A stretch of 64,000 nt of DNA, taken from the NCBI GenBank assembly GCA_963773045.1, contig CAVYZT010000003.1, positions 130,486-194,485 of the forward strand, given 5' to 3'. This document shows positions 2,444 to 62,320 of this stretch, piece by piece. The position numbers and the translations under genes are program-made. Position 1 is the first letter of the stretch; every line of letters begins with the position of its first letter. Below the pieces are notes generated by a model, which saw only the letters and a list, made by a program, of their open reading frames with translations, did no database searches and was not told where the DNA came from. The stretch comes from an uncultured Acidobacteriota bacterium. GTDB lineage: Bacteria > Acidobacteriota > Vicinamibacteria > Vicinamibacterales > UBA2999.

Positions 2444-2482
2444 GTCAGCTCTCGGCTATCGGCTTTCAGGTATCAGCGATCG
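2444..2482. repeat. Heptamer tandem array (minus-strand reading: cgatcgc tgatacc tgaaagc cgatagc cgagagc) filling the whole adaptor-permease spacer
   Basis: Period-7 words of the form NGANAGC read by eye. The array contains an 18-nt segment (2452-2469) identical in reverse complement to 11320-11337. Confidence 0.7.
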
Positions 2483-3640
2483 CTATCGGGGCGTTTGAGG
2501 CTCAACGCCGCGCACCTTGGCGCCATTGGGAACTTGTCGGCGAGCATCGGCGACGACCTTGTCACCGGTTGAGAGACCCTTGAGGATCTGCACACGAGTC
2601 CCGTCGTTCAGGCCTTCGGCCACTTCCACGGAGGACAAGGTGTCGCCCTCGATCTTCAGCGCGACGCGCTTGCCGTCTTTGGTCATCACGGCTTCGCGCG
2701 GCACGACGAGCGCATTGGCGACGGTCGCCTCGACGATGCGCGCAGTGGCATACATGCCTGAGAGCAACGCGCGTTTGTCGTTGGCAACGCGCACGTCGAC
2801 CATAAAGTGACGATTGCGTTCGTCGACTTCCGGTGCGATCGCCGCCAGCACGCCGTCGAAGGTCTCGCCGGGCTTCGCTTGTACTGAGACGACGGCTTTC
2901 ATGCCGACCCGAAGGCGTCCGGCTTCGAACTCCGAGACACCAGCTTCGAGCTTCATCTGACGAAGGTCTGCGACCACGACGATGGGTTTGTCGCCCGGCA
3001 TCGAGCCGGGGTCGTAGTTGCGCTCCACGACGAATCCGGTGACCGGCGACGAGACCGTCGCGTCTCGCTGCACTTCGGTCGCCCGTCGCAAGGATGCGTT
3101 CACCTGTGCCAGCGTGGCGGTGGCGAGATCGCGCTGTGCGATTGCGGAACGATGGGCGGTTTGCGCGGCGTCGAGGCGCTGGCGGGGCAGCGCGCCGTTC
3201 TCGAACAACACCTTCGCGCGGTCGTGTTCGAGGACGGCGTTGGCGAGCCCGGCTTCGGCATTCTCAAGCCCGGCCTTGGCGACGGCCACCGCCGCCGTGG
3301 CCGCGTCAACCTGCGCATCGATCTCGCGCCGATCGATCGTCGCAATCGTCTGACCGATCGACACTGGATCGCCAATGTCCACCAGCACGCGCTCCAGCGT
3401 TCCTGCCAACTTGGGCTTGACGCCGACCCGGCTGCGCGGCGCCAGCGCTCCCGAGATCTGGAGAGCGGACTCGAGCGTGGTCGGCGCGACCGACACCACC
3501 GGGATGTCCACCGACAACGGACTCACGGTCGTTTCCGGCGCGGCTTCGGCGGTGGTCGACGACGAACCACATCCAGCCAGAGCCAGAGGAAGAACGACGA
3601 ACGAAGACAGAAGTCGGAAAGAGGGATTAAGACGACTCAT
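2483..3640 (-). CDS. Efflux RND transporter periplasmic adaptor (membrane fusion protein, HlyD family), lipoprotein
   Basis: ORF 2483..3700. I prefer the internal start MSRLNPSFRLLSSFVVLPLALAGCGSS (lipobox LAGC). Coiled-coil and beta-barrel regions typical of MFPs follow. The gene sits between TetR and the RND permease. Confidence 0.85.
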   Translation of the reverse strand: MSRLNPSFRLLSSFVVLPLALAGCGSSSTTAEAAPETTVSPLSVDIPVVSVAPTTLESALQISGALAPRSRVGVKPKLAGTLERVLVDIGDPVSIGQTIATIDRREIDAQVDAATAAVAVAKAGLENAEAGLANAVLEHDRAKVLFENGALPRQRLDAAQTAHRSAIAQRDLATATLAQVNASLRRATEVQRDATVSSPVTGFVVERNYDPGSMPGDKPIVVVADLRQMKLEAGVSEFEAGRLRVGMKAVVSVQAKPGETFDGVLAAIAPEVDERNRHFMVDVRVANDKRALLSGMYATARIVEATVANALVVPREAVMTKDGKRVALKIEGDTLSSVEVAEGLNDGTRVQILKGLSTGDKVVADARRQVPNGAKVRGVEPQTPR

Positions 3641-4325
3641 GATTGCGCGCTCCGACGGGCACGGCGCCCGCATGATCACCGGCACACTCACACGGCACAA
3701 ACGTCAGGGACACACCGCTTTGCAAACCCGCCAAGGTCGTTTCCAACACGTCGCGGGCCAGGGCATCGCCGTCTTCGCCAGGCGCGAGGCGCTGACAATT
3801 GCCAATCACTGAGGGCCCCACGAGCGCGCCCCACAACACGTGCATCGCGACGTGAGGATTCATGTCGCGGGGGAAGTGGCCGGCGTCGGTGGCACGCTGC
3901 AGCGCCGCAACCGCGCGGCCCAGAAGCTCCTGCAGAATCTCGAAGCCTTCCCACTGCTCGCTGATCTTCGGGACCGAGCGGTCCACGAACATCAAGTCGA
4001 AGAACTCGCGTTGCTCCTTGGAGAACTCGTAGAAAGCCCACCAGCCCGTCCGAACGTCGGCCAGCGCATCGTCGGTGCCGTCACCGACCGCGCCGCGGAT
4101 TTTCTCGTCGAGGCGGCGAAAGCCTTCCTCGGCGAGGGCGTAGAAGATGTCGTCCTTGCTGGCGAAGTAGCTGTAGATCGCCGCCGGGCTGTATTCGATG
4201 CGTTCCGCAATCTTGCGGATGGAGACGTTGCGGTAGCCCTCTGACATGAAGAGGTCTCGGGCAGCGTCGAGGATAGAGGTCGTAACGGCTAATCGTTCGC
4301 GATCTTGGCGTTCTCGGATTCCCAT
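3627..4325 (-). CDS. TetR/AcrR family transcriptional regulator
   Basis: The N-terminal helix-turn-helix signature ILDAARDLFMSEGYRNVSIRKIAERIEYSPAAIYSYFASKDDIF is present. It is the first gene of the efflux operon and overlaps the adaptor start by 14 nt. Confidence 0.85.
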   Translation of the reverse strand: MGIRERQDRERLAVTTSILDAARDLFMSEGYRNVSIRKIAERIEYSPAAIYSYFASKDDIFYALAEEGFRRLDEKIRGAVGDGTDDALADVRTGWWAFYEFSKEQREFFDLMFVDRSVPKISEQWEGFEILQELLGRAVAALQRATDAGHFPRDMNPHVAMHVLWGALVGPSVIGNCQRLAPGEDGDALARDVLETTLAGLQSGVSLTFVPCECAGDHAGAVPVGARNHESS

Positions 4326-4330
4326 AGTTT

Positions 4331-4341
4331 GAACAGTGTTC
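4331..4341. promoter_or_regulatory. Perfect palindrome GAACAgTGTTC a few nt upstream of the tetR start; candidate TetR operator half-site pair
   Basis: The palindrome is seen directly in the sequence. Its position in the divergent tetR/DUF2085 spacer fits autoregulation. There is no experimental or comparative support. Confidence 0.3.
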
Positions 4342-4427
4342 GGAGGGCTAATGGTGTTAGACGCCGGCCCCTGCGATCAAGTTCCAGAATTTCACAAGCC
4401 GCCCAAGGGGCTCTTGCCGGGCGGCGA

Positions 4428-4472
4428 GGGGAGACAGTGGGGAGACAGTTGGGAGACAGCGGGGAGACAGTC
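4428..4472 (+). repeat. Four tandem copies of an 11-mer GGGGAGACAGT (units of 11, 12, 10 and 12 nt)
   Basis: Read directly: ggggagacagt ggggagacagtt gggagacagc ggggagacagtc. It lies in the divergent spacer between tetR and the DUF2085 gene. Confidence 0.85.
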
Positions 4473-4501
4473 CGACAAAGGGGCATACTGAGGACTCGAA
4501 T

Positions 4502-5529: not shown

Positions 5530-5532
5530 GCC

Positions 5533-5559
5533 GCAGATGACGCACATGACGCAGACGCC
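5533..5559. repeat. Three nonamers: gcagatgac gcacatgac gcagacgcc
   Basis: Read directly. The same word in reverse complement (catctgcgt) is tandemly repeated at 62294-62320. Confidence 0.65.
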
Positions 5560-6748: not shown

Positions 6749-6791
6749 ACAGGAGGCCAAGCCTCAAGCCCCACGCCCCAGGCCCGAGAGA

Positions 6792-9218: not shown

Positions 9219-9287
9219 CGGGCATGGGCGTTGTGCAGGCGGCGAAGAGCGAAGAGCGACCCTTCGACTGCGCTCATGTGTTTTTGC

Positions 9288-9357
9288 GAACAGCGATCAG
9301 CGAACAGCGAATAGCGAATAGCGAACAGCGGATAGCGAATAGCGAAAAGATAGCGAC
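9288..9357. repeat. Ten tandem heptamers GAAYAGC (gaacagc gatcagc gaacagc gaatagc gaatagc gaacagc ggatagc gaatagc gaaaaga tagcgac) ending at the lolC/E ATG
   Basis: Read directly. Two further GAAGAGC units lie at 9243-9260. There is no Shine-Dalgarno-like sequence between the array and the start codon. Confidence 0.85.
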
Positions 9358-10581
9358 ATGCCATTCGAACTCCAGATCGCACTGAGGTATCTGCTGGCCA
9401 AGCGCCGGCAGGTGTTCATCTCCGTGATCTCGCTCGTCTCGACGATCGGCGTCACGGTCGGCGTCATGGCGCTCGTGATCGCGCTGGCGCTGATGACCGG
9501 CCTGCAGCGCGAGCTTCGCGACCGCATCCTCGGGTCGTCGGCGCACATCTACGTCTGGAAGCCAAGCGGCATCCAGGACTATCACGCCGAAATCGCGCGT
9601 CTACGAAGCGTGCCTGGCGTGGTGGGCGGCGCGCCCGCCGTGATGGGCAAGGCGCTGATCCAGAGCGCCAAGGACGAGAACTTCATTTCAGTGAAGGGCA
9701 TCGATCCGGAGCTCGAGCCGGGCGTCACCGACATCGGCCGGTCGATTACCGCTGGCGCCTTGACGGATCTGAATCCCGCTTCCGACGAGGACTTTGCGGG
9801 AATCTTCCTCGGCAAGGATCTGGCCAGCCAGCTTGGCGTGTTGCCGGGTGACCTCGTGACGTTGGTGACGCCGCAAGGCACCTTGACGCCCATGGGCGTG
9901 ATGCCGCGACAGCGGCGGCTCAGGGTCGCGGGCACATTCCGGTTGGGCCTGTTCGAAGCCGACCAGTCGTCGGGGTTTGTGTCTCTCGAGACGGGTATGC
10001 GGCTGGCCGGCGCGGATCGTGTCGATCACATCGAGCTGCGAGTGGCCGACATCTATGAGGCGCCACGAATCGCCGACCAGATTACCGAACAGCTGGGCAA
10101 CCAATATGTGACGCAGGACTGGGCCGACATGAATCGGTCGCTCTATTCCGCGCTCTTGCTCGAGAAGATTGCGATGGGCATCGGTATTGGCCTCATCGTC
10201 ATGGTCGCGGCGCTGAACATCGTCGCTTCGCTGATTCTGCTGGTGATGGAGAAGACGAGGGACATCGCCATCCTCAAGACGATGGGAGCCTCGTCCCGGA
10301 GCATCACGCGGATCTTCCTGCTGCAGGGGCTGATCATCGGCGTGCTTGGCACGCTGGTCGGCGCGACCGCCGGCACGCTGATCTCGTTCGTGCTCGATCG
10401 CTATCGGGTGATCACGATCCCGAGCGACGTCTATCAGGTGAGTTATCTGCCGTTCAAGCTGCTGCCGTGGGATCTCGCCGTCATTGTGATTTCAGCGATC
10501 GTCGTCTGTTTTTTCGCGACCCTCTATCCGTCTCGTCAGGCCGCCCGCCTGGATCCTGCGCAAGCCTTGCGATATGAGTGA
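9358..10581 (+). CDS. Lipoprotein-releasing ABC transporter permease, LolC/LolE family
   Basis: MPFELQIALRYLLAKRR... N-terminus, a large periplasmic loop and a C-terminal FtsX domain. It is followed by lolD. Confidence 0.85.
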   Translation: MPFELQIALRYLLAKRRQVFISVISLVSTIGVTVGVMALVIALALMTGLQRELRDRILGSSAHIYVWKPSGIQDYHAEIARLRSVPGVVGGAPAVMGKALIQSAKDENFISVKGIDPELEPGVTDIGRSITAGALTDLNPASDEDFAGIFLGKDLASQLGVLPGDLVTLVTPQGTLTPMGVMPRQRRLRVAGTFRLGLFEADQSSGFVSLETGMRLAGADRVDHIELRVADIYEAPRIADQITEQLGNQYVTQDWADMNRSLYSALLLEKIAMGIGIGLIVMVAALNIVASLILLVMEKTRDIAILKTMGASSRSITRIFLLQGLIIGVLGTLVGATAGTLISFVLDRYRVITIPSDVYQVSYLPFKLLPWDLAVIVISAIVVCFFATLYPSRQAARLDPAQALRYE

Positions 10582-11254: not shown

Positions 11255-11340
11255 GATCAGCTATCAACTATCGGCGCTCAGCTGTCAGCATGTTCTCGCC
11301 GACAGCCGACCGCCAAGAGCTGAAAGCCGATAGCCGATGG
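11255..11340. repeat. Twelve tandem heptamers filling the entire 86-nt spacer between convergent lolD and the GYD gene; includes an imperfect hairpin (about 11271-11313)
   Basis: gatcagc tatcaac tatcggc gctcagc tgtcagc atgttct cgccgac agccgac cgccaag agctgaa agccgat agccgat. The arms ggcgctcagctgtcagc / gccgacagccgaccgcc are largely complementary and may act as a bidirectional terminator. Confidence 0.75.
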
Positions 11341-11664: not shown

Positions 11665-11692
11665 GACGTTCCTTTCGTTGACAGTCCACTCT

Positions 11693-11738
11693 AGAAAACT
11701 TGACTCCTGAAATTTCAACCAGTCGAGTCAAGTTTTCT
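11693..11738. promoter_or_regulatory. Perfect 14-bp inverted repeat agaaaacttgactc-N18-gagtcaagttttct in an AT-rich patch upstream of the GYD gene
   Basis: The arms are exact reverse complements by eye. The repeat is 29 nt upstream of the GYD start on the minus strand. It is a candidate operator or RNA hairpin. Confidence 0.4.
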
Positions 11739-11826
11739 CGCCCCGCCGGAGGCGGGGCAAAACCAACACTGTCGCTAGCGAGGCGGAGCCAGGAGTTCGC
11801 TTCCCACCAGTCTGGGCGGAGCCTCG

Positions 11827-13323: not shown

Positions 13324-13406
13324 CGCGAATCGCGAATCGCGAATCGCGAATCGAGCGAAAAGCGAATAGCGAAAAGCGAAAAGCGAATAGCGAAAAGCGA
13401 ATAGCC
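13324..13406. repeat. Heptamer array: CGCGAAT x4, then WAGCGAA-type units x8, filling the whole 83-nt spacer between two convergent genes
   Basis: cgcgaat cgcgaat cgcgaat cgcgaat cgagcga aaagcga atagcga aaagcga aaagcga atagcga aaagcga atagcc. It starts 1 nt after a TAA and ends at the stop codon of the opposite gene. Confidence 0.9.
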
Positions 13407-17794: not shown

Positions 17795-17885
17795 GGTGCC
17801 TGAGAACAGTGCCTACGGTGCCCAAGGGTGCCTAGGGTGCCTAAGGTGCCTGCGGTGCCAAAGGTGCCGAGTGGGGTGGGTGCCG
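17795..17885. repeat. About nine tandem nonamers built on GGTGCC (ggtgcc tga..., tacggtgcc, caagggtgcc, tagggtgcc, taaggtgcc, tgcggtgcc, aaaggtgcc ...)
   Basis: Read directly. The array fills most of the spacer between two minus-strand genes. It shares a 16-nt string agggtgcctaaggtgc with 48148-48211. Confidence 0.85.
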
Positions 17886-22986: not shown

Positions 22987-23031
22987 ACCTACGGTAGGAT
23001 AGGTAGTTCGTTCCAGAGCCTGCGCCTGCAT

Positions 23032-25746
23032 TTGTACGTTGGTACCTTTGTGACTTTTGCGATTCTCGCGTTGACGGCGGCCGCAGTAGCGGCAACTCCA
23101 CAGGAGCCAACGGTCCTCGCTCAAGGGCTGATCGCTGCCAGTCAGGCTGTACAGGCGGACAGCAACCCGCAGGCTCCGGCTCAGCCGCAGGAACCGGCAG
23201 CACCGCCGGCGCAAACTCCGACCCGAATGCCTCCCGCCGGTTCGGCCACGGTCATTCGCACGACCGAGCTGCGATTCCATCCCGTCAACGAGTCGCTGAT
23301 CGAAGCGTCGACCTATCTGTATTACATCCAGACGCCCCTTAGCCGTCCGGCTGAGGGGGTGTGGGTGCCGTATACGGATGTGATTGAACGATCGCTGTTG
23401 GATGACTTCAAGCGTCTATGGGCGACGAACTTCCTCGACAACCTGTGGATCGAGACGGTCGACGATCCGTTCCCCAATGGCGTGCAGGGCAAGCGGATCA
23501 TCTACCACATGGAAGAGCGGCCCCGCGTCAAGATCGTGGACTACACCGGCTCGACCAAGGTCGAGCGCACGAAGGTCGACGAGAAGATGAAAGAGGCCGG
23601 CGTGTCGCTGCGGCTCGACTCGTTCCTCGACGAAGGCGTGGTCCGCCGCGTCAAGGGCATCGTCAAGTCGCTGATGTCCGAGAAGGGCTACGAGTTTGCC
23701 GAGGTGAATTCGTCGGTCGAGGCGCTGCCGAGCGGACCCAAGCTGGTCAAGGTGGTCTTCGACATCAAAGAAGGCCCGAAAGTCAAAGTGCGGGCGCTCA
23801 ACTTCGTCGGCAACACGGCGGTGAGCGACGGCGCGCTCAGCAAACAGATGAAGTCGACCAAGGCGCACGGGTGGTTGTCGTGGATCACTGGGAAGGGCAC
23901 TTACCAGGAATCCAAGTTCGAGGAAGACGCCGACAAGGTCGTCGAGTACTACCGGAACAAGGGCTACATCCAGGCGCGCGTCGGCCGGCCCGAAATGAAG
24001 ACGCTCGAGGACAGCAAGGACAAGGAAACACGTTGGGTGCAGCTCGACATTCCGGTGGACGAAGGTCCGCGCTACCGCGTCGGTGAGTTCAACTTCGACG
24101 GCAACAAGGTCGTCAAGTCCGAATTCCTGCGTCCGCTCTTCAAGCTGAAGACGGGCGACTGGTACGCCGAGAGCGCCATCCGCAAGGGCCTGGAGAAGGC
24201 GCGCGAAGTGTATGGCTCCGGCGGCTATTTCGAGTTCACCGGCTATCCGGATCTCGAACCAGTGGCCGCGGCCGAAGGCCCGATCGCCGGCCCGGCGGTG
24301 CCGACCGTCAAGGTGACGATGCGCATGCAGGAAGGCGAGATGTACTTCGTCAACCGCATCACCTTCGTCGGCAATACGACGACGCGTGACAACGTCGTGC
24401 GCCGCGAACTGCGACTGGTCGAAGGCGGACCGTTCAACACGGAGGCGCTCAAGTTCAGCGTGAAGCGTCTGAACCAGCTCGGCTACTTCAAGCCGCTCGA
24501 GAACGGCGCGGGCATCGACGTCCAGAAGACGCCGAACGAGAAGAATCAGGTGGACGTCACGCTCAAGCTCGAAGAGCAGAACCGCAACCAGCTCACCTTT
24601 GGCGCGGGCGTGTCGCAGTTCGAAGGGTTCTTCGGGCAGTTGTCGTTCTCGACGTCGAACTTCCTCGGCCGTGGCGAAGCCCTCACGCTGTCGCTGCAGG
24701 CCGGGTCCCGGTCCGAGAACTACCAGCTCTCGTTCAGCGAGCCGTTCCTGTTCGATCGCGCCATCACCGGCGGCGCCGACGTCTATCGGCGAACGATTCG
24801 CTTCATCGATCAGTTCACGCAGCAGTCGACCGGCGGCAACCTCACCACCGGCTTCCCATTGGCCGGCTTCTCGCGGATGTACTTCACCTACAGCTTCGAG
24901 GGCACGACGGTCAGCGATCTCAATCCGATCTACTACTCGCCTGAGATCCTGCAGCGGAATCCGTACCTCAGAGACTCGTTGCTGATCGGCGAAGGCGGCA
25001 AGCGCACCGTGAGCAAGGTGACTCCCAGCTTCGTTCACAACACCGTCGACAATCCGATCTTCCCGAACACGGGCAAGCGGGTCACCATGTCGATGGACTT
25101 CGCCGGACTGGGCGGCAACACGAACTTCCTGAAGCCGCGCCTCGAGGACTCGCAGTTCATGCAGCACACGCGCCGGACGTCGTTCGGATACCGCGGGCAG
25201 ATTGAATACATCCGGCCGTTCGGCAGCACGACCTTCCTGCCGATCACCGAGACGCTCTTCCAGGGCGGTGAGTACACCATTCGCGGCTACGACATTCGTT
25301 CGGTCGGTCCCCGCGATCAGAACGGTCTGGTGCTCGGCGGCAACAAGAGCCTCCTGTTCAACGTGGAGTATCTGATCTCGATAGCCGGCCCGGTTCGGCT
25401 GGTACTGTTCTACGACGCCGGCCAGGTGAAAGCGCAAGGCGTGCCCTTCAGCTGGAAGGAGGACATCACCAAGACCGTCTTCCCGAGCGCGCCGATTCTC
25501 GTCGACCCGTTTGCCACCGTCACGCTGATCGATCCCAATGCGCCCGGTCCGGAAGTCGTCGTGACCGGTCAAACCAACGCCTTCAAGACCTCGACCGGCG
25601 CCGAAATCCGCTTTTTCATGCCCGTCTTGAATGTGCCCTTCCGGTTGATCTTCGCGATGAATCCGTCGCGAGTGGGCGTCTACGACAACAACCTCCAGCC
25701 GGCGAAGAAATACACCTTCAAGTTTGCCGTCGGCTCGACCTTCTAA
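23032..25746 (+). CDS. bamA: Outer membrane protein assembly factor BamA
   Basis: 904 aa, with repeated POTRA-like segments (VKIVDYTGSTKV..., VRALNFVGNTAVSD..., INRITFVGNTTTRDNVVRREL) and a C-terminal Omp85 barrel ending ...FKFAVGSTF. The TTG start is uncertain. Confidence 0.9.
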   Translation: MYVGTFVTFAILALTAAAVAATPQEPTVLAQGLIAASQAVQADSNPQAPAQPQEPAAPPAQTPTRMPPAGSATVIRTTELRFHPVNESLIEASTYLYYIQTPLSRPAEGVWVPYTDVIERSLLDDFKRLWATNFLDNLWIETVDDPFPNGVQGKRIIYHMEERPRVKIVDYTGSTKVERTKVDEKMKEAGVSLRLDSFLDEGVVRRVKGIVKSLMSEKGYEFAEVNSSVEALPSGPKLVKVVFDIKEGPKVKVRALNFVGNTAVSDGALSKQMKSTKAHGWLSWITGKGTYQESKFEEDADKVVEYYRNKGYIQARVGRPEMKTLEDSKDKETRWVQLDIPVDEGPRYRVGEFNFDGNKVVKSEFLRPLFKLKTGDWYAESAIRKGLEKAREVYGSGGYFEFTGYPDLEPVAAAEGPIAGPAVPTVKVTMRMQEGEMYFVNRITFVGNTTTRDNVVRRELRLVEGGPFNTEALKFSVKRLNQLGYFKPLENGAGIDVQKTPNEKNQVDVTLKLEEQNRNQLTFGAGVSQFEGFFGQLSFSTSNFLGRGEALTLSLQAGSRSENYQLSFSEPFLFDRAITGGADVYRRTIRFIDQFTQQSTGGNLTTGFPLAGFSRMYFTYSFEGTTVSDLNPIYYSPEILQRNPYLRDSLLIGEGGKRTVSKVTPSFVHNTVDNPIFPNTGKRVTMSMDFAGLGGNTNFLKPRLEDSQFMQHTRRTSFGYRGQIEYIRPFGSTTFLPITETLFQGGEYTIRGYDIRSVGPRDQNGLVLGGNKSLLFNVEYLISIAGPVRLVLFYDAGQVKAQGVPFSWKEDITKTVFPSAPILVDPFATVTLIDPNAPGPEVVVTGQTNAFKTSTGAEIRFFMPVLNVPFRLIFAMNPSRVGVYDNNLQPAKKYTFKFAVGSTF

Positions 25747-26175: not shown

Positions 26176-26317
26176 TGGCGTCGATCGCGAGCGGCGCGCC
26201 ACTGTCCACCCGCGCAGAATTGGGAAGGGGAGCGAATCGCCGAACGGCAGGGTGCTCCTGTCTCGGAACTGGTGTAGAATCACCAACTTGGCGTTATCTA
26301 TGAAAGGACCCACGGTA

Positions 26318-27016
26318 ATGAAAGCCCTTGTTGTTGCGGCCGCATTCGGCGTGCTCTTGGCGGCGTCTCCCACCTTCGCGCAGGCTCCGGCGCAAGCTCC
26401 CGCACAGACCCCGCCCAAACCGGCCGCACCCCAGACTCCGGCGCCCGCACCGCCTGCACCGGCGGTGCCACCAGCCGCAGCGCCGGCGCCGGGTCCGCCC
26501 CGAGAATTTCCGGCTGGCGCGAAAATCGCCTACGTCGTCCTTCAGCGTATCGCCAACGAGTCGGCCGATGGCCGCGTGGCGACGACCCGCATCCAGGCGC
26601 TTCAACAGAAGAAGGCGGCTGAGTTGAACGAGAAGCAAAAGGCCCTGACGACGGCGCAGCAGAAGCTCGACAAAGAAGGCTCGGTGATGAGCCTCAACGC
26701 GCAGGGCGATCTGCAGAAGCAGATCGAGCGGCTGAACCTCGAGGTTCAGCGGTTCACCCAGGACGCGCAGCAGGAGGTTCAGGAGTTGCAGCAGCAGCTC
26801 CAGACCGAATTCCAGCAGCGCCTCGAGCCGGTCCTCCAAGCCGTGGCTCAGGAAAAGGGCCTGCAGTTCGTCTTCAACGGACCCGACGCGGGCCTGGTTT
26901 GGGCCGACTCCGCATTGGACATCTCGACCGACGTCATTCGCCGCCTTGACGCCGCCAAGCCGCCGGCCGCCCCGGCGAAACCGCCGGCTGCGCCCACCAA
27001 GCCACCCGGACGGTGA
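26318..27016 (+). CDS. skp: OmpH/Skp family periplasmic chaperone with Pro/Ala-rich N- and C-terminal tails
   Basis: The internal ATG of ORF 26093..27016 gives MKALVVAAAFGVLLAASPTFAQ. A coiled-coil core (QALQQKKAAELNEKQKALTTAQQKLDKE...) follows. The position after bamA is canonical. Confidence 0.8.
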   Translation: MKALVVAAAFGVLLAASPTFAQAPAQAPAQTPPKPAAPQTPAPAPPAPAVPPAAAPAPGPPREFPAGAKIAYVVLQRIANESADGRVATTRIQALQQKKAAELNEKQKALTTAQQKLDKEGSVMSLNAQGDLQKQIERLNLEVQRFTQDAQQEVQELQQQLQTEFQQRLEPVLQAVAQEKGLQFVFNGPDAGLVWADSALDISTDVIRRLDAAKPPAAPAKPPAAPTKPPGR

Positions 27017-34256: not shown

Positions 34257-34292
34257 ACCTGTGAACCCTTGAACCCTTGAATCCGTGACCCG
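34245..34292 (+). repeat. Six tandem octamers (gtgaaacc gtgaacct gtgaaccc ttgaaccc ttgaatcc gtgacccg) spanning the upstream stop codon and the downstream GTG start
   Basis: Read directly. The first unit encodes the last residues of the amidohydrolase, and the last unit carries the UbiA-family start codon. Confidence 0.8.
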
Positions 34293-35910: not shown

Positions 35911-36825
35911 ATGTACTTCGACTTCGACGATCGCTACACGGACATTGAGCCCGTTGGGCGGGCGATCAATCGCCGTGACGGCGTGGCCGTGTCTGTAGGG
36001 GTACACACGGCAATCCTGGTGGCCATTTTGTTTTTGCCCCAGTTCCTTCCCGACCGGCCATCCGCGAAGCCACTCGTGCCGCCAGATCGCAATAGGCCAC
36101 CGGAATTCGTCTTCGTGCAACCCAAGGTGGACCTGCCGGCGCTGCGCGCGCCGCAGCGCGCCGACATCTCTGACGCCGACCGCAAAGCGCGCTCGGTTGA
36201 ACGCGCTCCCGAGATCCGCAACCCGCTGCCGTTTGCGCGCGGCGATTCCCCTCAGCGAGTCGAGTCGAGTCCTGATGAACGCATGCGGGGCCGCGGGCCG
36301 GCCCCGGAGCCGGCGCCGCCGGCGCCCACGCCGAGCCCCGAGGTTCCCACACAAGCGGAGCAAGATCGACTGGCGCTGATGCAGAAGCCGGCAATGCAGC
36401 CGCCGGCGGGAGGATCGCTCGGCGAAGCACTCAAGAACCTGCAGAAGTACGTGCAGAACGAATCGTTCAACAATCGCAGCGGGCAGACGCAGGACTTCGG
36501 CCCCGCGATCCAGTTCGACACGAAAGGCGTCGAGTTCGGCCCGTGGATTCGAAGATTCGTGTCGCAGGTACGGCGGAACTGGTTCGTGCCCTACGCCGCG
36601 ATGTCGATGCGCGGGCGCGTGGTCATCACCTTCAACGTGCACCGCAGTGGCGCGATCACGGATGTCACCGTCGTCAGGCCCTCGGAGATCGACTCGTTCA
36701 ACACCGCGGCAGTGAACGCCCTTCTCGCCTCGAATCCAACCGAGCCGCTCCCGAAGGAATACCCGGACGACAAGGCGTTCTTCACGGTGACGTTCTTCTA
36801 TAACGAGTCTCCGCCGGGGCAGTAG
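35911..36825 (+). CDS. TonB family energy transducer-like protein
   Basis: One N-terminal TM span, a Pro-rich linker (PAPEPAPPAPTPSPEVP) and a C-terminal TonB-type domain (GRVVITFNVHRSGAITDVTVVRPSEIDSFNTAAVNAL). Confidence 0.75.
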   Translation: MYFDFDDRYTDIEPVGRAINRRDGVAVSVGVHTAILVAILFLPQFLPDRPSAKPLVPPDRNRPPEFVFVQPKVDLPALRAPQRADISDADRKARSVERAPEIRNPLPFARGDSPQRVESSPDERMRGRGPAPEPAPPAPTPSPEVPTQAEQDRLALMQKPAMQPPAGGSLGEALKNLQKYVQNESFNNRSGQTQDFGPAIQFDTKGVEFGPWIRRFVSQVRRNWFVPYAAMSMRGRVVITFNVHRSGAITDVTVVRPSEIDSFNTAAVNALLASNPTEPLPKEYPDDKAFFTVTFFYNESPPGQ

Positions 36826-36901
36826 AACCTGCAGAACCTGTAGAACCTGCAGAACCTGCAGAACCTGCAGAACCTGCAGAACCTGCAGAACCTGTGGACC
36901 T
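36822..36901 (+). repeat. Nine tandem nonamers G(C/T)AGAACCT running from the tonB-like TAG stop to the miaA GTG start
   Basis: gtagaacct gcagaacct gtagaacct gcagaacct x5 gtggacct. It generates the spurious QVLQVLQVL antisense ORF in the track. Confidence 0.95.
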
Positions 36902-37864
36902 GTGAAACGACTCATCGCTATCCTCGGCCCGACCGCGACGGGCAAGAGTGCGCTCGGTATCGCCATCGCGCAGCAACTGGACGGCGAGATCGTCAACTGC
37001 GATTCGACGGCTGTTTATCGTGGCTTTGATATCGGCACCGACAAAGTGCCGGTGGGCGAGCGTGGCGGGATTCCTCATCATCTGATCGACATCGCCAATC
37101 CGACCGACGAGTACACCGCGGCACAGTACGCGCGCGACGCGGCTCAGGTGATCCGAGAAATCCATGGGCGCGGCCGTCTCCCGATCGTGGTGGGCGGGAC
37201 CGGCCTCTACTACCGCGCGTTGACACGGGGATTGTTTCCGGGGCCAGGCAAGGATGCCGATCTTCGAAACCGGCTCGAGCGCGTCGCCGCTCGGAAAGGC
37301 ACTGAGGCGCTGCACCGGATGGTGTCGCGCGTCGATCCGCCGTCCGGCGATCGGATTCAACCGAGGGACCGCAAACGGCTGATCCGAGCGCTCGAGGTCT
37401 ACTTCGTCACGGGCCGCCCGCTCACCGCGCACTTCGCGGAGACGGTGTCGCCGCTCGATCCCGGTGTAAAGGTAACGGCTATTGCGCTGAATGCGCCGAT
37501 GTCATGGCTCGCCGATCGCCTGGCGCGACGCGTCGAGGCGCAGTTCGAGTCGGGACTGCTGGATGAGATCCGAGGGCTGCTCGCCTCGGGTATTCCCCCC
37601 GATGCACGCCCGTTCGGGGGACTGGTCTACAGGCAGGCGCTCGAGCACCTGCGCGGCGTGCGCGACGAGCCGGCGACCCGCGTGCTCATCACGCAGGAGA
37701 ACCGTCGCTACGCTCGACGGCAGTTGATCTGGTTCCGAAAAGAGCCTAACCTTGTTTGGCTTGACGGGCCTGGCGCGTCGCCGGCCGTTCAATCCGCAAT
37801 CATCCGCATGCTGGCCGATCAGCAAGCGCGGTCGAAGGACACGCGACATGTCGCCGATACCTGA
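36902..37864 (+). CDS. miaA: tRNA dimethylallyltransferase
   Basis: LIAILGPTATGKSALGIAIA P-loop, DSTAVYRGFDIGTDK, HHLIDI. It is followed by hfq as in many bacteria. Confidence 0.9.
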   Translation: MKRLIAILGPTATGKSALGIAIAQQLDGEIVNCDSTAVYRGFDIGTDKVPVGERGGIPHHLIDIANPTDEYTAAQYARDAAQVIREIHGRGRLPIVVGGTGLYYRALTRGLFPGPGKDADLRNRLERVAARKGTEALHRMVSRVDPPSGDRIQPRDRKRLIRALEVYFVTGRPLTAHFAETVSPLDPGVKVTAIALNAPMSWLADRLARRVEAQFESGLLDEIRGLLASGIPPDARPFGGLVYRQALEHLRGVRDEPATRVLITQENRRYARRQLIWFRKEPNLVWLDGPGASPAVQSAIIRMLADQQARSKDTRHVADT

Positions 37865-40968: not shown

Positions 40969-41143
40969 TCCAAAACGCCGACATTCCAAGACCCGTGGCC
41001 GCAAGCGCCGGACCCACGACGCGCTCAAGGCGACCAACGCCGGCAGCTGCCCGCAGTGCGGCGAGCCGAAGGCCGCGCACCGCGTGTGCGCGTATTGCGG
41101 CTTCTACCGCGGCCGCCAGGTCCGTCCCGTCGATCAAGATTGA
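40961..41143 (+). CDS. rpmF: 50S ribosomal protein L32
   Basis: MPNPKRRHSKTRGRKRRTHDALK...CPQCGEPKAAHRVCAYCGFYRGRQV. Confidence 0.95.
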   Translation: MPNPKRRHSKTRGRKRRTHDALKATNAGSCPQCGEPKAAHRVCAYCGFYRGRQVRPVDQD

Positions 41144-42072: not shown

Positions 42073-42090
42073 CGCGCAGCCACTGTACCC

Positions 42091-42161
42091 AGACATCTTT
42101 GAAGGGCCATAAAAACCACTGGTTATGAGTCAACTTTTTGAGGTGGCCCTTCAAGATGTCT
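42091..42161. other. Large hairpin: 19/18-nt arms (agacatctttgaagggcca / tggcccttcaagatgtct, one bulge) around a 34-nt AT-rich loop, in the fabD-fabG spacer
   Basis: The arms were checked by reverse-complementing by eye. The loop taaaaaccactggttatgagtcaactttttgagg has 12 of 34 G+C in an otherwise GC-rich locus. Confidence 0.75.
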
Positions 42162-42250
42162 CGCGCCGCGGCGCGGCGCAAGGCAAGATAGCCCTCGCGA
42201 GGCGAAGCCGCACGTGCGCCTCTCGGCTCGTTCACGCGGGGCCTCGCTAG

Positions 42251-44505: not shown

Positions 44506-44513
44506 CGGACGTT

Positions 44514-44666
44514 GGCCGCGGAGGCGCGGAGGCGCGGAGAAGATTTGGATCAGGCCCTTTTGAGAGCAACGTCACCCGATCGTGCGGCCGTGGTGTCGTC
44601 GTGGGTTCGACGAAGGTAATGGATATGCCTACGAATAGTCCTCCGCGTCTCCGCGACTCCGCGGCC
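44514..44666. repeat. Inverted arrays of GCGCGGAG-type octamers (about 27-nt arms, 24/27 complementary) flanking a 98-nt core, in the fabF-etfB spacer
   Basis: The left arm is ggccgcggaggcgcggaggcgcggaga (44514-44540). The right arm is tcctccgcgtctccgcgactccgcggcc (44639-44666). Complementarity was checked position by position. Confidence 0.8.
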
Positions 44667-44683
44667 ACGCACGTGGGGTTCGC

Positions 44684-48147: not shown

Positions 48148-48211
48148 GGCAAGGTGCCGACGTGACAAGGGTGCCTAAGGTGCTTAGGGTGCCTAGGGTG
48201 CCAGGGGTGCG
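48148..48211. repeat. GGTGCC-based nonamer array (aaggtgcc gacgtgaca agggtgcc taaggtgct tagggtgcc tagggtgcc aggggtgcg)
   Basis: Read directly. It starts right after the ETF:QO stop and overlaps the 5' end of ORF 48162..48920. Confidence 0.8.
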
Positions 48212-51935: not shown

Positions 51936-52088
51936 CAGACGTACGGGCCACAGAGACACCGAGACACAGAGCAAACCTGCCGAAGAGCTAGACGGTGCGC
52001 GCTCTCGAGCGCGGTGAACTCTTAGATTAGATATCTCTGTGTTTCTGTGCCTCGGTGGCCTGTACGTGTTCCTCTGCATCTGTACGTT
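51936..52088. repeat. Imperfect long inverted repeat of CACAGAG/GTACG words (left 51936-51971, right 52035-52076), plus a low-GC patch, upstream of leuS
   Basis: The left arm is cagacgtacgggccacagagacaccgagacacagag. The reverse complement of the right arm is cagaggaacacgtacaggccaccgaggcacagaaacacagag. The ends match and the middle is permuted. Confidence 0.6.
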
Positions 52089-54586: not shown

Positions 54587-54602
54587 AGAAGCACAAAGGG
54601 CG

Positions 54603-55202
54603 ATGAAGAAGGCGATGAAGAACGAAGACCGGGGAGCGAAGAAGGAGAGTGTCGGGCTGACACGACGACAGGCGTTGAGAGCGCTTCCGGTGGTGGCGTT
54701 CGGCGTCGGGGCGGGATCGTGCGGCTACGCGCTGTCCGGGCGCGGATCGTTCCTGCCGTCGTACATCAAGATCCTTGGGATCCCGATGTTCACGAATGCG
54801 ACGCCCTATCAGGCCGTCGAGCAGCTGTTTACGCAGCAGGTCCGGGTCCACTTTCAGAGCAGCGGACGCTACACCATCGTCCCGACGGACGTTGGCGCCG
54901 ACGGCATCGTGCGCGGGGAGATTCTCTCGATCCAGGCGACGCCGGCGGGCCTCAGCGACGCGCAGCTGGCCTCGCGCTATCGGTTCACGGTCATCGTCAA
55001 GGTGAAATTCGAGGACGTCAAGCAGGGAAAGACGCTGTGGGAGAACCCGGCGCTTTCGTTCTCGGATGAGTACGAGTTGACCACTCCCGGCAGCGCCGGT
55101 CGTGATGCCTCGGCGTTCATGGGACAGGAGCGAGCCGCGCTCGACCGCATGTCGCAGGATTTCGCCCGCTCGGTCGTGAGCGCCATCCTGGAGGCCTTCT
55201 GA
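54603..55202 (+). CDS. lptE: LPS-assembly lipoprotein LptE-like
   Basis: RRQALRALPVVAFGVGAGSCGY (Tat-like signal plus lipobox). The leuS-lptE-holA order matches E. coli. The start codon is uncertain; the N-terminal codons lie in a GATGAAGAA-type repeated stretch (54587-54650). Confidence 0.65.
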   Translation: MKKAMKNEDRGAKKESVGLTRRQALRALPVVAFGVGAGSCGYALSGRGSFLPSYIKILGIPMFTNATPYQAVEQLFTQQVRVHFQSSGRYTIVPTDVGADGIVRGEILSIQATPAGLSDAQLASRYRFTVIVKVKFEDVKQGKTLWENPALSFSDEYELTTPGSAGRDASAFMGQERAALDRMSQDFARSVVSAILEAF

Positions 55203-55206
55203 CGCG

Positions 55207-55290
55207 CGAGATCAGGAGTAGTAGCAGGAGGTCAAGAGATCACGAGAGTTGGCTTTCTCCTGACCTTCCAATCTCCTGTTTGACCCTCTT
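55207..55290. repeat. Direct and inverted copies of CAGGAG / CTCCTG words in the lptE-holA spacer
   Basis: gatcaggag tagtagcaggag gtcaagagatcacgagag ... ttctcctgacc ... atctcctgtttgaccctctt. It shares the 13-mer gagatcaggagta with 48908-48920. Confidence 0.55.
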
Positions 55291-56357: not shown

Positions 56358-56461
56358 CCCGCCTTCACGCGGAGCGCTTCCGCCTTCGCAGATGCTTCGG
56401 CGGACGGCCGTAGCTTTGGCGGAGGCTGGTCGGCGGACCGCCGTAGGCCTATGGCGGAGGC
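56358..56461. repeat. GC-rich repeated words, including a ~30-nt direct repeat (56397-56426 and 56430-56461) and CCGCCTTC x2
   Basis: tcggcggacggccgtagctttggcggaggc versus tcggcggaccgccgtaggcctatggcggaggc, read directly. Confidence 0.6.
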
Positions 56462-56521
56462 CGGTTGGACTCGCCTTCGAGGGCCATCAGATTCCCTTTT
56501 AGGCAGGTCTGGAGACCGGCG

Positions 56522-57134: not shown

Positions 57135-57186
57135 GGCACCCGGCACCAACCCCTTGACACTTCTGGCACCAGGCACCCCTGGCGCC
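57135..57186. repeat. Cluster of GGCACC words (reverse complement of GGTGCC) between convergent rpsT and the transglycosylase gene
   Basis: ggcacc at 57135, 57142, 57165 and 57172, and ggcgcc at 57181, read directly. Confidence 0.6.
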
Positions 57187-60691: not shown

Positions 60692-60715
60692 ATCGGTCGA
60701 TCGGTCGATCCGGCA
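60692..60715. repeat. Octamer repeat atcggtcg atcggtcg atccggca in the recX-alaS spacer
   Basis: Read directly. It is preceded by an 8-bp stem, aaccggcc-N11-ggccggtt (60650-60676). Confidence 0.55.
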
Positions 60716-60742
60716 GCGGGTCAGCGAGGGTCGAGAGTGCCG

Positions 60743-61189
60743 TTACGGCCTCAGACGCTTCAAGATGTCACCCGTTCGAAAGCCCTGCGCCATCAGTCCA
60801 CGAACGATCCGGGCGCGGGCCCGTTCGTCGAGTTGATCGACACTGGCACCCTTCAGCCGCCGCTCGAGCGCGCTATCGAGTAGCGCCTGTTCGTCGACTT
60901 CGCCGAAGACCTCGTCAACGGCCGCCTCGGCAATGGACTCTGCGATTCCGATCTCGCGAACCTTCTGCAGCACCCTCACCCGGCCGCGATGCCGAACAGC
61001 GCTTTCGCGCCGCGCGACGGCGACGGCGACGCGCCGATCGTTGACGGTGCCGTCCTCTCGGAGCCGCTTCAGTGCCTCGTCGATGTCATCCGAATCGCAC
61101 TTCCGTCGGGCCAGGCGCTCCCGCAGCTGATACTCAGAAAGTTCTCGCCCCGAAAGCAGGGTTAGCGCGATCTGAAACGCACTCGCCAT
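60743..61189 (-). CDS. recX: Recombination regulator RecX
   Basis: 148 aa, with LLSGRELSEYQLRERLARR...VNDRRVAVAVAR... helical repeats. It is adjacent to alaS as in many bacteria. Confidence 0.85.
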   Translation of the reverse strand: MASAFQIALTLLSGRELSEYQLRERLARRKCDSDDIDEALKRLREDGTVNDRRVAVAVARRESAVRHRGRVRVLQKVREIGIAESIAEAAVDEVFGEVDEQALLDSALERRLKGASVDQLDERARARIVRGLMAQGFRTGDILKRLRP

Positions 61190-61258
61190 GGCACCCCTGG
61201 CAGCCTCGCACCCGAAACCTTGGGCACCTTAGGCACTGTAGGCAATGTAGGCTCCATG
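61190..61258. repeat. Nonamer array of GGCACC-type words (ggcacccct ggcagcctc gcacccgaa ... ggcacctta ggcactgta ggcaatgta ggctccatg)
   Basis: Read directly. It is the reverse-complement orientation of the GGTGCC family at 17795 and 48148, and it begins at the base after the recX start codon. Confidence 0.75.
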
Positions 61259-61276
61259 GACTCTATTTGCCGAAGG

Positions 61277-62218
61277 TTATCGCACTCCCGCAGGGGAGCG
61301 GACCGGCGTGAGCCATGCGTGCGTGTCCGGCAGCGTGCCGTTGATGATCCCGAAAAAACGATCCTGAAGGGCCTTGGTCACCGGTCCTCGAGATCCGACG
61401 CCGACGGTGATCTTGTCGATCGAACGAATCGGCGTGACTTCGACGGCGGTGCCGCAGAAGAACGCCTCGTCGGCCATGTACAGGACTTCGCGAGGAATCG
61501 CGCACTCGCGCAGCTCGTACCCGAGGTCGCTGGCCATCGTGATCACGCAGTCTCGCGTGATGCCTTTGAGCACCGACGAATCCAGGGTCGGCGTGAAGAT
61601 CACGCCGTCCCGAACCAGGAACAGATTCTGGCCGCTGCCTTCGCTCACGAGGCCACGCTCGTCCAGGGCGATACCGTCACCGTAACCGTCGAGCGTCGCC
61701 TGCATCTTGATGAGCGCGGAGTTCGCATAGTTGCCGGTGGCCTTGGCCAGGCCCGGCATCGTGTTGGGGGCAATCCGTGTCCACGAGCTGACGCCGACGT
61801 CGATCCCCTTTTCGAGCGCATCGGAGCCCATCATCTGGTTCCATTCCCAGACGACGATCGCGACGTCCACCGGGTTGAGCATCGGGTTGAGCCCGAGCTG
61901 CTCGTAGCCGCGGTAGACGAGCGGGCGGATGTAGCAGCCCTTGAAGCGGTTGACGCGAACCGTCTCGACCACCGCGTCTGACAGTTCCTGCTGCGACCAG
62001 CGCGGCTCCATGCGATAGACGCGGCAGGAATCCATCATCCGTCGCATGTGCGGTTCGAGGCGGAAGACGTTCGTGCCGTGAGGTGAGTCGTACGCGCGAA
62101 TGCCCTCGAACACGCCTGTGCCGTAGTGCACGACGTGCGAAGCAATGTGAATGGTGGCGTCTTTCCACTCCACCATCGAACCGTTCATCCAAATCTTGCC
62201 GGTGCCAGCAAAAGCCAT
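61277..62218 (-). CDS. ilvE: Branched-chain amino acid aminotransferase
   Basis: IWMNGSMVEWKDATIHIASHVVHYGTGVFEGIRAY...GNYANSALIK...EVTPIRSID motifs. Confidence 0.9.
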   Translation of the reverse strand: MAFAGTGKIWMNGSMVEWKDATIHIASHVVHYGTGVFEGIRAYDSPHGTNVFRLEPHMRRMMDSCRVYRMEPRWSQQELSDAVVETVRVNRFKGCYIRPLVYRGYEQLGLNPMLNPVDVAIVVWEWNQMMGSDALEKGIDVGVSSWTRIAPNTMPGLAKATGNYANSALIKMQATLDGYGDGIALDERGLVSEGSGQNLFLVRDGVIFTPTLDSSVLKGITRDCVITMASDLGYELRECAIPREVLYMADEAFFCGTAVEVTPIRSIDKITVGVGSRGPVTKALQDRFFGIINGTLPDTHAWLTPVRSPAGVR

Positions 62219-62293
62219 GGCTGTGCTCTTTCTCGTGTGTGGTTAGGGTCAGGCCGCGTCTGCTGGTTCCAGGCTCTGCCGTTGCCTGAAAAC

Positions 62294-62320
62294 CATCTGC
62301 GTCATCTGCGTCATCTGTAG
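62294..62320. repeat. Three nonamers: catctgcgt catctgcgt catctgtag
   Basis: Read directly. It is the reverse complement of the gcagatgac words at 5533-5559. Confidence 0.7.

Follow-up and report, generated by a model that had tools for sequence, protein, structure and literature searches.

Tandem arrays of short words, in part paired into hairpins, in the intergenic DNA of Vicinamibacterales (Acidobacteriota)

Long simple sequence repeats (LSSRs, with units of 5-11 nt; Mrazek, Guo and Shah 2007, as relayed in PMC4679880 and PMC4692102) are characterised in these later accounts as head-to-tail repeats that exceed chance expectation, in which heptamers are the commonest, units not divisible by three are kept to non-coding DNA, the hosts are high-GC and free-living, and an origin by slippage has been proposed. 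As relayed there, heptamers are the commonest long simple sequence repeat (SSR) in prokaryotes, and repeats of this kind are richest in large, high-GC, non-pathogen genomes. Here we describe arrays of this kind, made of tandem 7- to 11-nt words, in the intergenic spacers of a 64,000-nt stretch of DNA from an uncultured Acidobacteriota bacterium (contig CAVYZT010000003.1, positions 130,486 to 194,485; hereafter the window, meaning the whole stretch) and in its relatives. Like LSSRs as those papers summarise them, these arrays exceed what shuffled DNA yields, have units within 5-11 nt with heptamers leading, and change in copy number by whole units; they differ in that octamers are nearly as common, many word families occur per genome, a third of the arrays form inverted pairs, and there is a strong bias toward gene 3' ends. 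The arrays are a real, lineage-wide form of known bacterial repeat DNA and not a new kind of system. On balance, we think it probable that they are fast-changing, slippage-altered SSRs of long unit found throughout the lineage, similar to the short tandemly repeated repetitive (STRR) sequences of cyanobacteria, accompanied by array-built hairpins that resemble repetitive extragenic palindromic (REP) sequences and may act at RNA 3' ends.

The first-pass annotation of this DNA had offered known repeats only as loose analogues; the likeness is closer than that, since LSSRs and the heptamer arrays of Xanthomonas and Nostoc share most features with the present arrays. The GGGAATC arrays of Xanthomonas and the GGGGAYT arrays of Nostoc (Rehm et al. 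2015, PMC4692102) are likewise about 90% intergenic, lie much nearer the end of the upstream open reading frame (ORF) than the following ORF, occur on both strands, occasionally form inverted pairs between convergent genes, and are not conserved across sister species. Each of those genomes has one dominant G-rich word that is G-quadruplex-capable, whereas the words found here are diverse, mostly not prone to form G-quadruplexes, and come in periods 8 and 9 too. Cyanobacterial STRR sequences and the TAACTGA arrays of Beggiatoaceae and cyanobacteria (PMC4679880) are alike in being dispersed intergenic heptamers of few word families that change in 7-nt steps, in having relatives with shorter, repeat-free spacers, and in placing arrays directly before start codons without a Shine-Dalgarno sequence. 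Heptanucleotide arrays dispersed in intergenic DNA are what we find here as well, together with arrays of periods 8, 9, and 11, but the phylum and the words are others, and TAACTGA arrays are mostly start-proximal and forward, whereas those described here are mostly stop-proximal.

REP sequences, bacterial interspersed mosaic elements (BIMEs), and REP doublets forming hairpins (REPINs) (e.g. PMC3733652) are dispersed, genome-specific extragenic hairpins that lie at the 3' ends of genes, in many cases in spacers that are convergent or co-directional, and are thought to act in termination or in protection of mRNA 3' ends. By analogy, REP/BIME elements would be the closest functional counterpart of the array hairpins. 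A REP is a single palindrome of 20-40 nt with a GTAG or CGTC tag and a link to a REP-associated tyrosine transposase (RAYT), whereas the arms here consist of tandem 7-9-mers; no GTAG or CGTC tag was found at the ends of the array hairpins that were read, and GTAGG occurs only on a separate element at 56358-56465. The tandem repeats of Borgs (PMC9879509) are also fast-evolving, arise independently, are A-enriched on the coding strand, and have intergenic units mostly not divisible by three; unlike the short-unit, degenerate arrays described here, which are absent from ORFs, they are perfect, include units of 18-21 nt, and lie in ORFs in about half of the cases. What appears new for this class of repeat is the coexistence of word families, the near-equal use of octamers, the high share of array hairpins, and a quantified 3'-end gradient; a full-text literature search linking Vicinamibacter with tandem repeats found no paper.

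Arrays were called with Tandem Repeats Finder (TRF), with a score of at least 30 taken as support in the window and a score of at least 50 defining a strong array. The window has a GC content of 64%, and the codon-model gene calls divided it into 62 genes, 59 kb of coding DNA, and 5.0 kb of intergenic DNA. When the window spacers were subjected to 100 dinucleotide-preserving shuffles, a mean of 1.6 and a maximum of 5 arrays of score at least 30 were obtained, compared to 20 in the real spacers; for arrays of score at least 50 in the concatenated spacers, the numbers were 0.2 and 7. In the whole window, eight arrays of score at least 50 are intergenic and one lies in the 59 kb of coding DNA, making strong arrays about 90-fold denser per base in intergenic than in coding DNA, in agreement with the earlier observation by eye that coding regions hold nothing comparable. 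The same pipeline applied to 50-kb control stretches gave intergenic densities (score at least 30) of 0 per kb for E. coli K-12, 0.22 for Sinorhizobium pSymB, and 0.65 for a Ralstonia megaplasmid, compared to 2.54 for the Vicinamibacterales loci and 4.18 for the window, and there were no multi-copy 7-9-mers among the control arrays. The dinucleotide shuffles and the control genomes rule out chance or composition as the origin of the arrays. An assembly artefact is ruled out as well: the GCGAAYA array upstream of the permease gene in the window is also present on an independent contig from a JGI metagenome (L001, about 99% identical), and like arrays are found on relatives' contigs of 0.2-2 Mb.

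The suggestion that such arrays extend beyond this window was borne out by a clade survey of 80 related loci, which together with the window make 81 loci and 1.43 Mb (TRF score at least 40, at least 2.8 copies). In the 80 Vicinamibacterales loci, array density is 0.80 per kb in intergenic and 0.055 per kb in coding DNA. The intergenic arrays of the 81 loci have periods of 7 (n = 45), 8 (n = 26), or 9 (n = 9), or multiples of these, and periods 5, 6, and 10 have 0-2 each; coding arrays have periods that are mostly multiples of three, mainly 9, 12, and 18.

Of the 20 intervals listed by the first-pass annotation, 18 contain TRF arrays of score at least 30 with the periods given there; the GGCACC words at 57135-57186 are irregular, and the inverted repeat at 55207-55290 is weak (fold z-score, z, of -0.9). 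Two of its looser word clusters proved to be repeats of another sort, namely a period-12 array at a gene start (54599-54622, within 54587-54650) and a period-33 palindromic duplication of REP-like kind (56358-56461). Two TRF arrays had been passed over, at 6757-6785 (CCAAGCC, four copies) and 9242-9259 (GCGAAGA, 2.6 copies). The description of the spacers as systematically filled was overstated: 18 of the 40 spacers of at least 25 nt contain an array, about 16% of the intergenic bases of the window lie in arrays, and six spacers (2444, 6749, 13324, 34257, 36826, and 48148) are at least 60% array. The arrays and related repeats of the window are as follows.

2444-2489: GCTATCG / CGATAGC family, period 7 (TRF 2448-2489, score 35), filling a 39-nt spacer between two minus-strand genes.
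4428-4471: four copies of GGGGAGACAGT, period 11 (TRF score 74); no other divergent spacer holds a strong array; no structure as RNA (z +0.7).
5532-5559: about three units of the GACGCAGAT family, period 9 (TRF 5532-5553, score 37), beginning 3 nt past a stop codon.
6757-6785: four copies of CCAAGCC, period 7 (TRF score 37), 67% of a 43-nt co-directional spacer.
9242-9357, plus strand: 2.6 copies of GCGAAGA, then about 10 of GCGAAYA (TRF scores 36 and 80/94, the latter at 9286-9346), ending at the ATG of a LolE-like permease gene.
11255-11340: inverted pair CAGCTATC... / ...GATAGCCG (TRF 11298-11337), filling the convergent spacer after a LolD-like gene; inverted repeat I6, a hairpin with an RNA fold of -39.1 kcal/mol (z -3.8).
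13324-13406: four copies of CGCGAAT and seven of GCGAAWA, period 7 (TRF 13325-13405, score 95), running from stop codon to stop codon and covering 98% of a convergent spacer; fold not significant (z -1.3).
17795-17885: about nine units of a GGTGCC core plus a variable 3-nt linker, period 9 (TRF 69/83 at 17809-17868), adjoining the stop of a minus-strand gene at 17887; four exact GGTGCC-N3-GGTGCC matches and one more with a mismatch; for the array, the mismatches per position are 0,0,0,0,0,2,1,3,0.
34240-34292, plus strand: 6.8 copies of GTGAACCC, period 8 (TRF score 57), 100% of the spacer between an amidohydrolase gene and a UbiA-family gene (Pfam); it overlaps the end of the amidohydrolase gene, provides its TGA stop, and reaches the start of the UbiA-family gene.
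36822-36902, plus strand: eight copies of G(C/T)AGAACCT, period 9 (TRF score 135, 96% matches), extending between the TAG that ends a TonB-like gene and the GTG that starts miaA; it includes the palindrome CTGCAG and has a ladder-like fold (z -6.5).
44513-44667: 155 nt between fabF-like and ETF-beta genes, with an arm of three copies of CGCGGAGG, a 101-nt centre, and an arm of three copies of CCTCCGCG, period 8 (TRF 44517-44539 and 44641-44663, scores 46 and 39); inverted repeat I2, with 27-nt arms that are 93% complementary (z -4.8).
48148-48211, plus strand: GGTGCC-core array, period 9 (TRF 58/63 at 48162-48210), from the ETF-QO stop to the next gene start, with four GGTGCC-N3-GGTGCC matches.
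51939-52067: 129-nt element upstream of leuS with arms of CACAGAGA / TCTCTGTG words; inverted repeat I1, with 33-nt arms that are 85% complementary (z -4.3).
56358-56465: duplicated GC-rich palindrome with a GTAGG tag (CGGCGGACCGCCGTAGGCC), period 33 (TRF score 103), a REP-like element outside the class of 7-9-mer arrays.
57135-57186: loose GGCACC words (the reverse complement of GGTGCC) in a convergent spacer, with no TRF array of score at least 30 and one pattern match at 57172-57186.
60692-60715: short array of 2.4 copies of ATCGGTCG, period 8 (TRF 60692-60710, score 38).
61190-61258: GGCACC / CTTAGGCAC words, period 9 (TRF scores 35 and 39, 61217-61252), with GGTGCC-pattern matches, adjoining the start codon of a minus-strand recX-like gene; the gene spacing of 87 nt is equal in two other assemblies.
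62294-62320: 2.7 copies of CATCTGCGT, period 9 (TRF 62294-62317, score 48, 100% matches); the word is the reverse complement of that at 5532-5559.

The position of the arrays relative to genes was evaluated in the clade loci. Convergent spacers were found to have 1.59 arrays per kb, co-directional ones about 1.0, and divergent ones 0.16; array density tracks how many gene 3' ends adjoin the spacer. In co-directional spacers, 31 of 78 arrays adjoin the upstream stop codon and 19 of 78 the downstream start codon. In the window, the stop codon is supplied by the array at 34240 and 36822, and an array reaches the start codon at 9357, 36902, and 61190. Read in frame with the TonB-like gene, the nonamer at 36822-36902 gives (Q/stop)-N-L, and the terminal TAG is a C-to-T variant of the CAG of the other units; unit variants therefore set the end of this protein. 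The arrays are not frame-independent stop-codon traps: although 21 words have a stop on the sense strand alone and only 6 on the antisense strand alone (p = 0.006), 68 of 98 words are stop-free on both strands, which argues against stop-trapping as a general role. There is also a strand asymmetry, in that A exceeds T on the sense strand in 65 arrays and the opposite holds in 28 (p = 1.6e-4), and purines make up 62% of the sense strand of stop-proximal arrays; no such A>T or purine asymmetry was found in non-array spacer DNA. C-rich tracts of the Rho-utilisation type were rejected as an identity of the arrays, the sense-strand G/C skew being about zero overall and G-rich near stops.

The same word families had been reported to recur tens of kilobases apart in both orientations, and this was confirmed quantitatively. 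The pattern GGTGCC-N3-GGTGCC has 15 matches compared to 0.63 expected, 12 of them in four spacers; the arrays at 48148-48211, 57172, and 61190 have the terminal string GCCAGGGGTGC in common; and CTGAAAGCCGATAGCCGA is an exact 18-nt match between 2452-2469 (minus strand) and 11320-11337 (plus strand), 8.8 kb apart, with 0.03 expected. Allowing at most one mismatch and any rotation or strand, 25% of same-period array pairs share a word within a locus compared to 6.4% between loci and 2.2% for letter-shuffled words, and 14 of the 23 word-sharing pairs within loci lie kilobases apart. These sequence comparisons indicate that the word families are genome-specific and were copied between spacers rather than reinvented. 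GGTGCC is not a genome-wide word bias of the uptake-sequence type, as it occurs 46 times in coding DNA compared to about 70 expected from composition. The STRR words of heterocystous cyanobacteria are not known to include GCGAAYA, GCTATCG, GGTGCCNNN, AGAACCTGC, or the other words found here.

Comparison of orthologous spacers among relatives revealed differences in both unit number and the presence of arrays. Contig L001 encodes an identical permease, and the GCGAAYA array before its ATG is 17 nt longer than that of the window; 5 of 72 aligned array positions differ (6.9%), compared to 0.45% in the coding DNA of the same contig, and there is an additional 14-nt indel in the same spacer between lysS and lolE. 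In most relatives, this lysS-lolE junction is 0-30 nt long, often 2 nt. Heptamer arrays found there are of AAGGCAR in L002, TTCTTCG in L025, CTGGAGC in L036 and L040, CTCCAGG in L037, GCTGTCA in L051, and CCCAGGC in L057, compared to GCGAAYA in the window, and the junction has thus been filled independently with unrelated heptamer arrays. At the same junction, L059 has a 93-nt near-perfect palindrome (GGGGGACAGACCCTATTTTTACGTTTTCCGTAA..., at about 9908-10000).

Columns were compared among four genomes (L053, L055, L065, and L069) with 94-97% DNA identity. Variable columns make up 31% of arrays, 15% of other intergenic DNA, and 6.6% of coding DNA, and gapped columns 21, 14.5, and 0.8%, respectively. 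Gaps within octamer and nonamer arrays consist of whole units of 8 or 9 nt. Of the earlier proposal of slippage seeded at gene ends, the slippage part is upheld by these whole-unit length differences between strains (8- and 9-nt gaps, and the differences of 14 and 17 nt described above). Seeding from the local gene end is not, because identical words and multi-unit strings occur at different gene ends and one orthologous spacer has unrelated words from lineage to lineage.

The variation of unit number between strains is what would be expected if the arrays were contingency loci, that is, SSRs that switch the expression of adjacent genes (phase variation). The avoidance of divergent promoter spacers (0.16 arrays per kb), the location outside ORFs, the degeneracy of the units, and housekeeping neighbours such as lysS, miaA, and leuS make this very improbable. 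By definition, contingency SSR loci are perfect repeats that lie in the promoter or the 5' part of the coding region of genes for surface or virulence factors. Pfam matches of the array-flanking genes in the window comprise lysyl-tRNA synthetase (lysS), leucyl-tRNA synthetase (leuS), and MiaA; a LolE/MacB-type permease with its ATPase (LolD-like) and a TonB-like protein; and FabF, ETF-beta, ETF-QO, UbiA prenyltransferase, RecX, a response regulator, and a Ser/Thr kinase.

Many arrays lie beside their own reverse complement. A reverse-complement partner within 200 nt was found for 44 of 128 arrays (34%), compared to 0 in a control in which words were reversed and not complemented. In the window, the inverted pairs at 11255-11340, 44513-44667, and 51939-52067 are the three top intergenic inverted repeats (z -3.8 to -4.8), and hairpins in relatives have values of -5 to -10. 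The helices of array hairpins are formed by the cores, and the linkers make up internal loops. As RNA, direct arrays lack structure (z 0 to +1.9), save where the word holds a palindrome (CTGCAG at 36822). The sense RNA of the hairpins folds more stably than the antisense (-59.6 versus -55.4 kcal/mol, Wilcoxon p = 0.013), with 83 G-U pairs of 997 on the sense strand and 54 of 969 on the antisense strand.

Two comparisons bear on whether the hairpin form itself is kept. In one spacer of four genomes that are about 95% identical, there are three unrelated word-built hairpins, each very stable (z -5 to -10). At a convergent junction, a hairpin with three CAGAAGRY units per arm is shared by six genomes with nucleotide identity as low as about 82%, and this persistence indicates that not all arrays are ephemeral. 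In L070, this hairpin has A- and T-runs on its flanks, as in a bidirectional terminator. Covariation in the CAGAAGRY hairpin was uninformative, the cores being invariant and the linkers mismatched.

These two comparisons speak against a neutral by-product, in which all of the arrays, hairpins included, would be debris of slippage and quasi-palindrome formation at weakly selected gene 3' flanks: one spacer kept a hairpin through three sequence replacements, and another hairpin was kept to about 82% identity. The stabler folding and G-U excess of the sense strand, its A>T and purine asymmetry, and core conservation in some arrays also count against neutrality. Nonetheless, the words are arbitrary, GCGAANA and permuted heptamers being similar in viral contigs (38, 41, and 13); most orthologous spacers are array-free; arrays evolve faster than other intergenic DNA; and constraint on promoters alone could yield the 3'-end bias. 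We regard a wholly neutral origin as rather unlikely, though it deserves serious consideration.

A terminator or insulator role had been suggested for the arrays in general; it is plausible for the inverted pairs only, and these are not canonical terminators because they have no U-tracts. Array hairpins have arms of 20-70 nt, and no T-runs were found at those of the window. Set against the usual description of an intrinsic terminator, the location downstream of genes fits and the short stem with a U-tract does not. Between window positions 1 and 20000, there are 17 consensus sites with a hairpin and T-run compared to 13.8 expected from shuffles, nearly all inside genes, and sigma-70 promoter-like consensus sites occur there at chance level (2 versus 2.4). 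An RNA-level role is suggested by the 3'-end location, by a hairpin form that seems to outlast sequence replacement, by the stability and G-U excess of the sense fold, and by the absence of consensus terminators from the spacers of the first 20 kb. A real 3'-end function of the array hairpins is thus a tentative proposal, and we would put it at clearly less than an even chance.

The copying of words between spacers raises the possibility that the arrays derive from REPIN- or MITE-like (miniature inverted-repeat transposable element) non-autonomous mobile elements, with arms of tandem transposase-binding words that insert by stop codons or into hairpins, direct arrays being decayed halves. This would best account for the identical multi-unit strings in different spacers and the abrupt exchange of hairpins at one spacer. 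It is also in keeping with genome-specific word families, as in L053, which has the same GGCTTC...GAAGCC-type hairpin at two spacers where GGGAT-type words occur in its sister genomes. The elements at 44513-44667 (155 nt) and 51939-52067 (129 nt) have array-built terminal inverted repeats, as MITEs would, and a possible 7-nt flank repeat (CGGACGT / CGCACGT, 6/7 match) was found at the former only; neither has a second full copy within the window. Against mobility, no clear target-site duplications were found, no transposase was detected by Pfam among the 20 window proteins scanned, most copies are alike in words and not in the order of their units or the sequence of the loop, indels of whole units show that slippage in place occurs as well, and no clean pair of empty and filled sites was recovered. 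REP and REPIN families have an associated RAYT (a Y1 transposase) and hundreds of near-identical copies per genome. We consider mobile elements of this kind unlikely. A bolder proposal would make the array-armed hairpins undescribed self-propagating intergenic elements of Vicinamibacterales, with stems of strain-specific 7-9-nt words, that spread between gene 3' ends by a sequence-independent mechanism (hairpin-templated synthesis or a structure-specific transposase) and replace canonical intrinsic terminators, direct arrays being by-products; we think this no more probable than the former.

In some arrays, a core of 5-6 nt is constant and a contiguous linker of 2-3 nt is variable (e.g. GGTGCC+NNN and GTTCGT+NN(N)). 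An earlier version of a core-versus-linker test had 8 qualifying arrays, none of them significant; in the improved version used here, 6 of 34 arrays have p<0.05 (Fisher combined p = 3e-5). Such a layout would suit periodic binding sites for a protein or ribonucleoprotein (ribosomal protein S1 or cold-shock-type proteins on unstructured leaders in a lineage with few Shine-Dalgarno sites, or a nucleoid protein) that tune translation or chromosome structure. The unstructured state of direct arrays as RNA, the 19 of 78 arrays at start codons together with Shine-Dalgarno-like motifs before only about 18% of genes, and a like proposal for the Beggiatoaceae TAACTGA arrays (PMC4679880) are in line with this. 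However, there are dozens of unrelated words per genome and the words differ between strains that are about 95% identical, so no single specific binder fits; moreover, arrays lie at stops more often than at starts, are present in convergent spacers, and occur in both orientations. Binding arrays, which had been among the earlier suggestions, are unlikely as a general explanation given words that are arbitrary and differ between close strains, and we rate this reading as quite improbable. The Shine-Dalgarno-like motifs were scored in the Vicinamibacterales loci as GGAG, GAGG, or AGGA at -5 to -17 of called genes, and several genes that begin right after an array have none.

The reading that we favour, long-unit SSRs accompanied by array-built hairpins, and these alternatives are not all mutually exclusive. 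We infer slippage as the generating process, together with a copying route and an RNA-level role. Strand slippage or unequal exchange would lengthen and shorten arrays by whole units, with loops of 7-9 nt evading mismatch repair, which corrects loops of at least 4 nt poorly (PMC4060949). Arrays would persist only in places free of reading frames and promoters, and so would pile up at stop codons in co-directional and convergent spacers, where they could swell a 2-nt gene junction to 35-140 nt. Copying of array segments among the spacers of one genome would then give genome-specific word families, and a second hairpin arm might be mirrored from the first by hairpin-templated synthesis. An array beside its own reverse complement would form a transcript hairpin of short perfect helices broken at the variable linkers, and such hairpins may act in the manner of REP/BIME elements at RNA 3' ends, either ending transcription in a non-canonical way or protecting the 3' end. 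Direct arrays that stand alone are probably halves or expansions of the same material, without sequence-specific function.

Several points weigh against this reading. Simple slippage explains neither the preference for periods 7 and 8 over 5 and 6 nor the identical strings in different spacers. A correspondence of about 7 nt with a polymerase contact length was suggested by Mrazek, as relayed in PMC4679880. Many arrays are degenerate (72-90% matches), and the conserved core with variable linker in 6 of 34 arrays could point to motif selection and not to neutral slippage. The array hairpins have no U-tracts and are far longer than canonical terminator stems. A role in termination or stability is a proposal drawn from sequence. 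The gap in stability between sense and antisense folds is modest, favouring sense in 15 hairpins versus 11 by count, and some of these hairpins are orthologues. The DNA examined amounts to 64 kb of the window genome and about 21 kb per relative, and gene boundaries came from a crude codon-model caller built for this analysis.

Vicinamibacterales are among the most abundant soil bacteria, and to our knowledge almost nothing is known of gene punctuation in them. If the hairpins mark or protect transcript 3' ends, this would explain how transcription units are separated despite a scarcity of consensus terminators and of Shine-Dalgarno sites. The marked bias toward units of 7 and 8 nt and the rapid swapping of words at fixed positions provide a natural data set for the old question of why heptamers dominate long bacterial microsatellites. 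The arrays are also hypervariable strain markers and a hazard for short-read assembly and for the calling of starts and stops in these metagenome-assembled genomes (MAGs), the latter because some arrays supply a stop codon or adjoin a start codon.

The window represents an ordinary part of the core chromosome of a member of the Vicinamibacterales (Acidobacteriota). The closest relatives of the permease, among one-genome-per-species GTDB contigs, are in Vicinamibacterales / Acidobacteriota MAGs with 58-81% amino-acid identity. Six MAGs titled 'uncultured Bifidobacteriaceae' (L003, L009, L013, L017, L018, and L070) have a locus of Vicinamibacterales type, with 61-81% protein identity and 64-69% GC, and these labels are probably wrong. 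Exact-protein look-ups for further assemblies of the same species were without a match in four of six cases. No Rfam family (at gathering score) and no tRNA was found in the window, which rules out a known RNA family or tRNA-derived repeat as the identity of the arrays; a CRISPR array is ruled out because the units of 7-11 nt abut directly and are not repeats of 23-50 nt with unique spacers.

The word GCGAATA is not special or universally conserved. The x4 pattern of GCGAANA was matched by over 120 metagenome contigs with GC contents of 36-70%, frequently in the form of inverted pairs; in those of contigs L082-L201, the purine-rich array comes first in 17 and second in 5. Among IMG/VR viral contigs (L202-L292), four-unit arrays of GCGAANA number 38 and those of two permuted controls (GGCAANA and GACGANA tested) 41 and 13; as permuted heptamers are about as frequent, heptamer arrays are generically common, also far outside this lineage. 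The viral contigs with heptamer arrays of arbitrary words include giant-virus MAGs. Contigs such as L118, L144, and L179 have 10-16 different short-word arrays each, indicating that array-rich genomes exist in other, lower-GC taxa.

Some called spacers of the window are probably coding. That at 40969-41139 encodes a ribosomal-protein-L32-like CxxC...CxxC peptide, and those at 22987-23226 and 26176-26464 resemble N-terminal extensions of the downstream genes, so the true intergenic total is somewhat less than 5.0 kb. Palindromes with GTAGG, like that at 56358-56465, were also seen downstream of the LolD-like gene in L002, L004, and L005. Two co-directional spacers contain long hairpins that are not built from arrays, at 11665-11826 (AGAAAACTTGACTC...GAGTCAAGTTTTCT) and 42073-42250 (CAGACATCTTTGAAGGGCCA...TGGCCCTTCAAGATGTCT), and other kinds of intergenic hairpin therefore coexist with the arrays.

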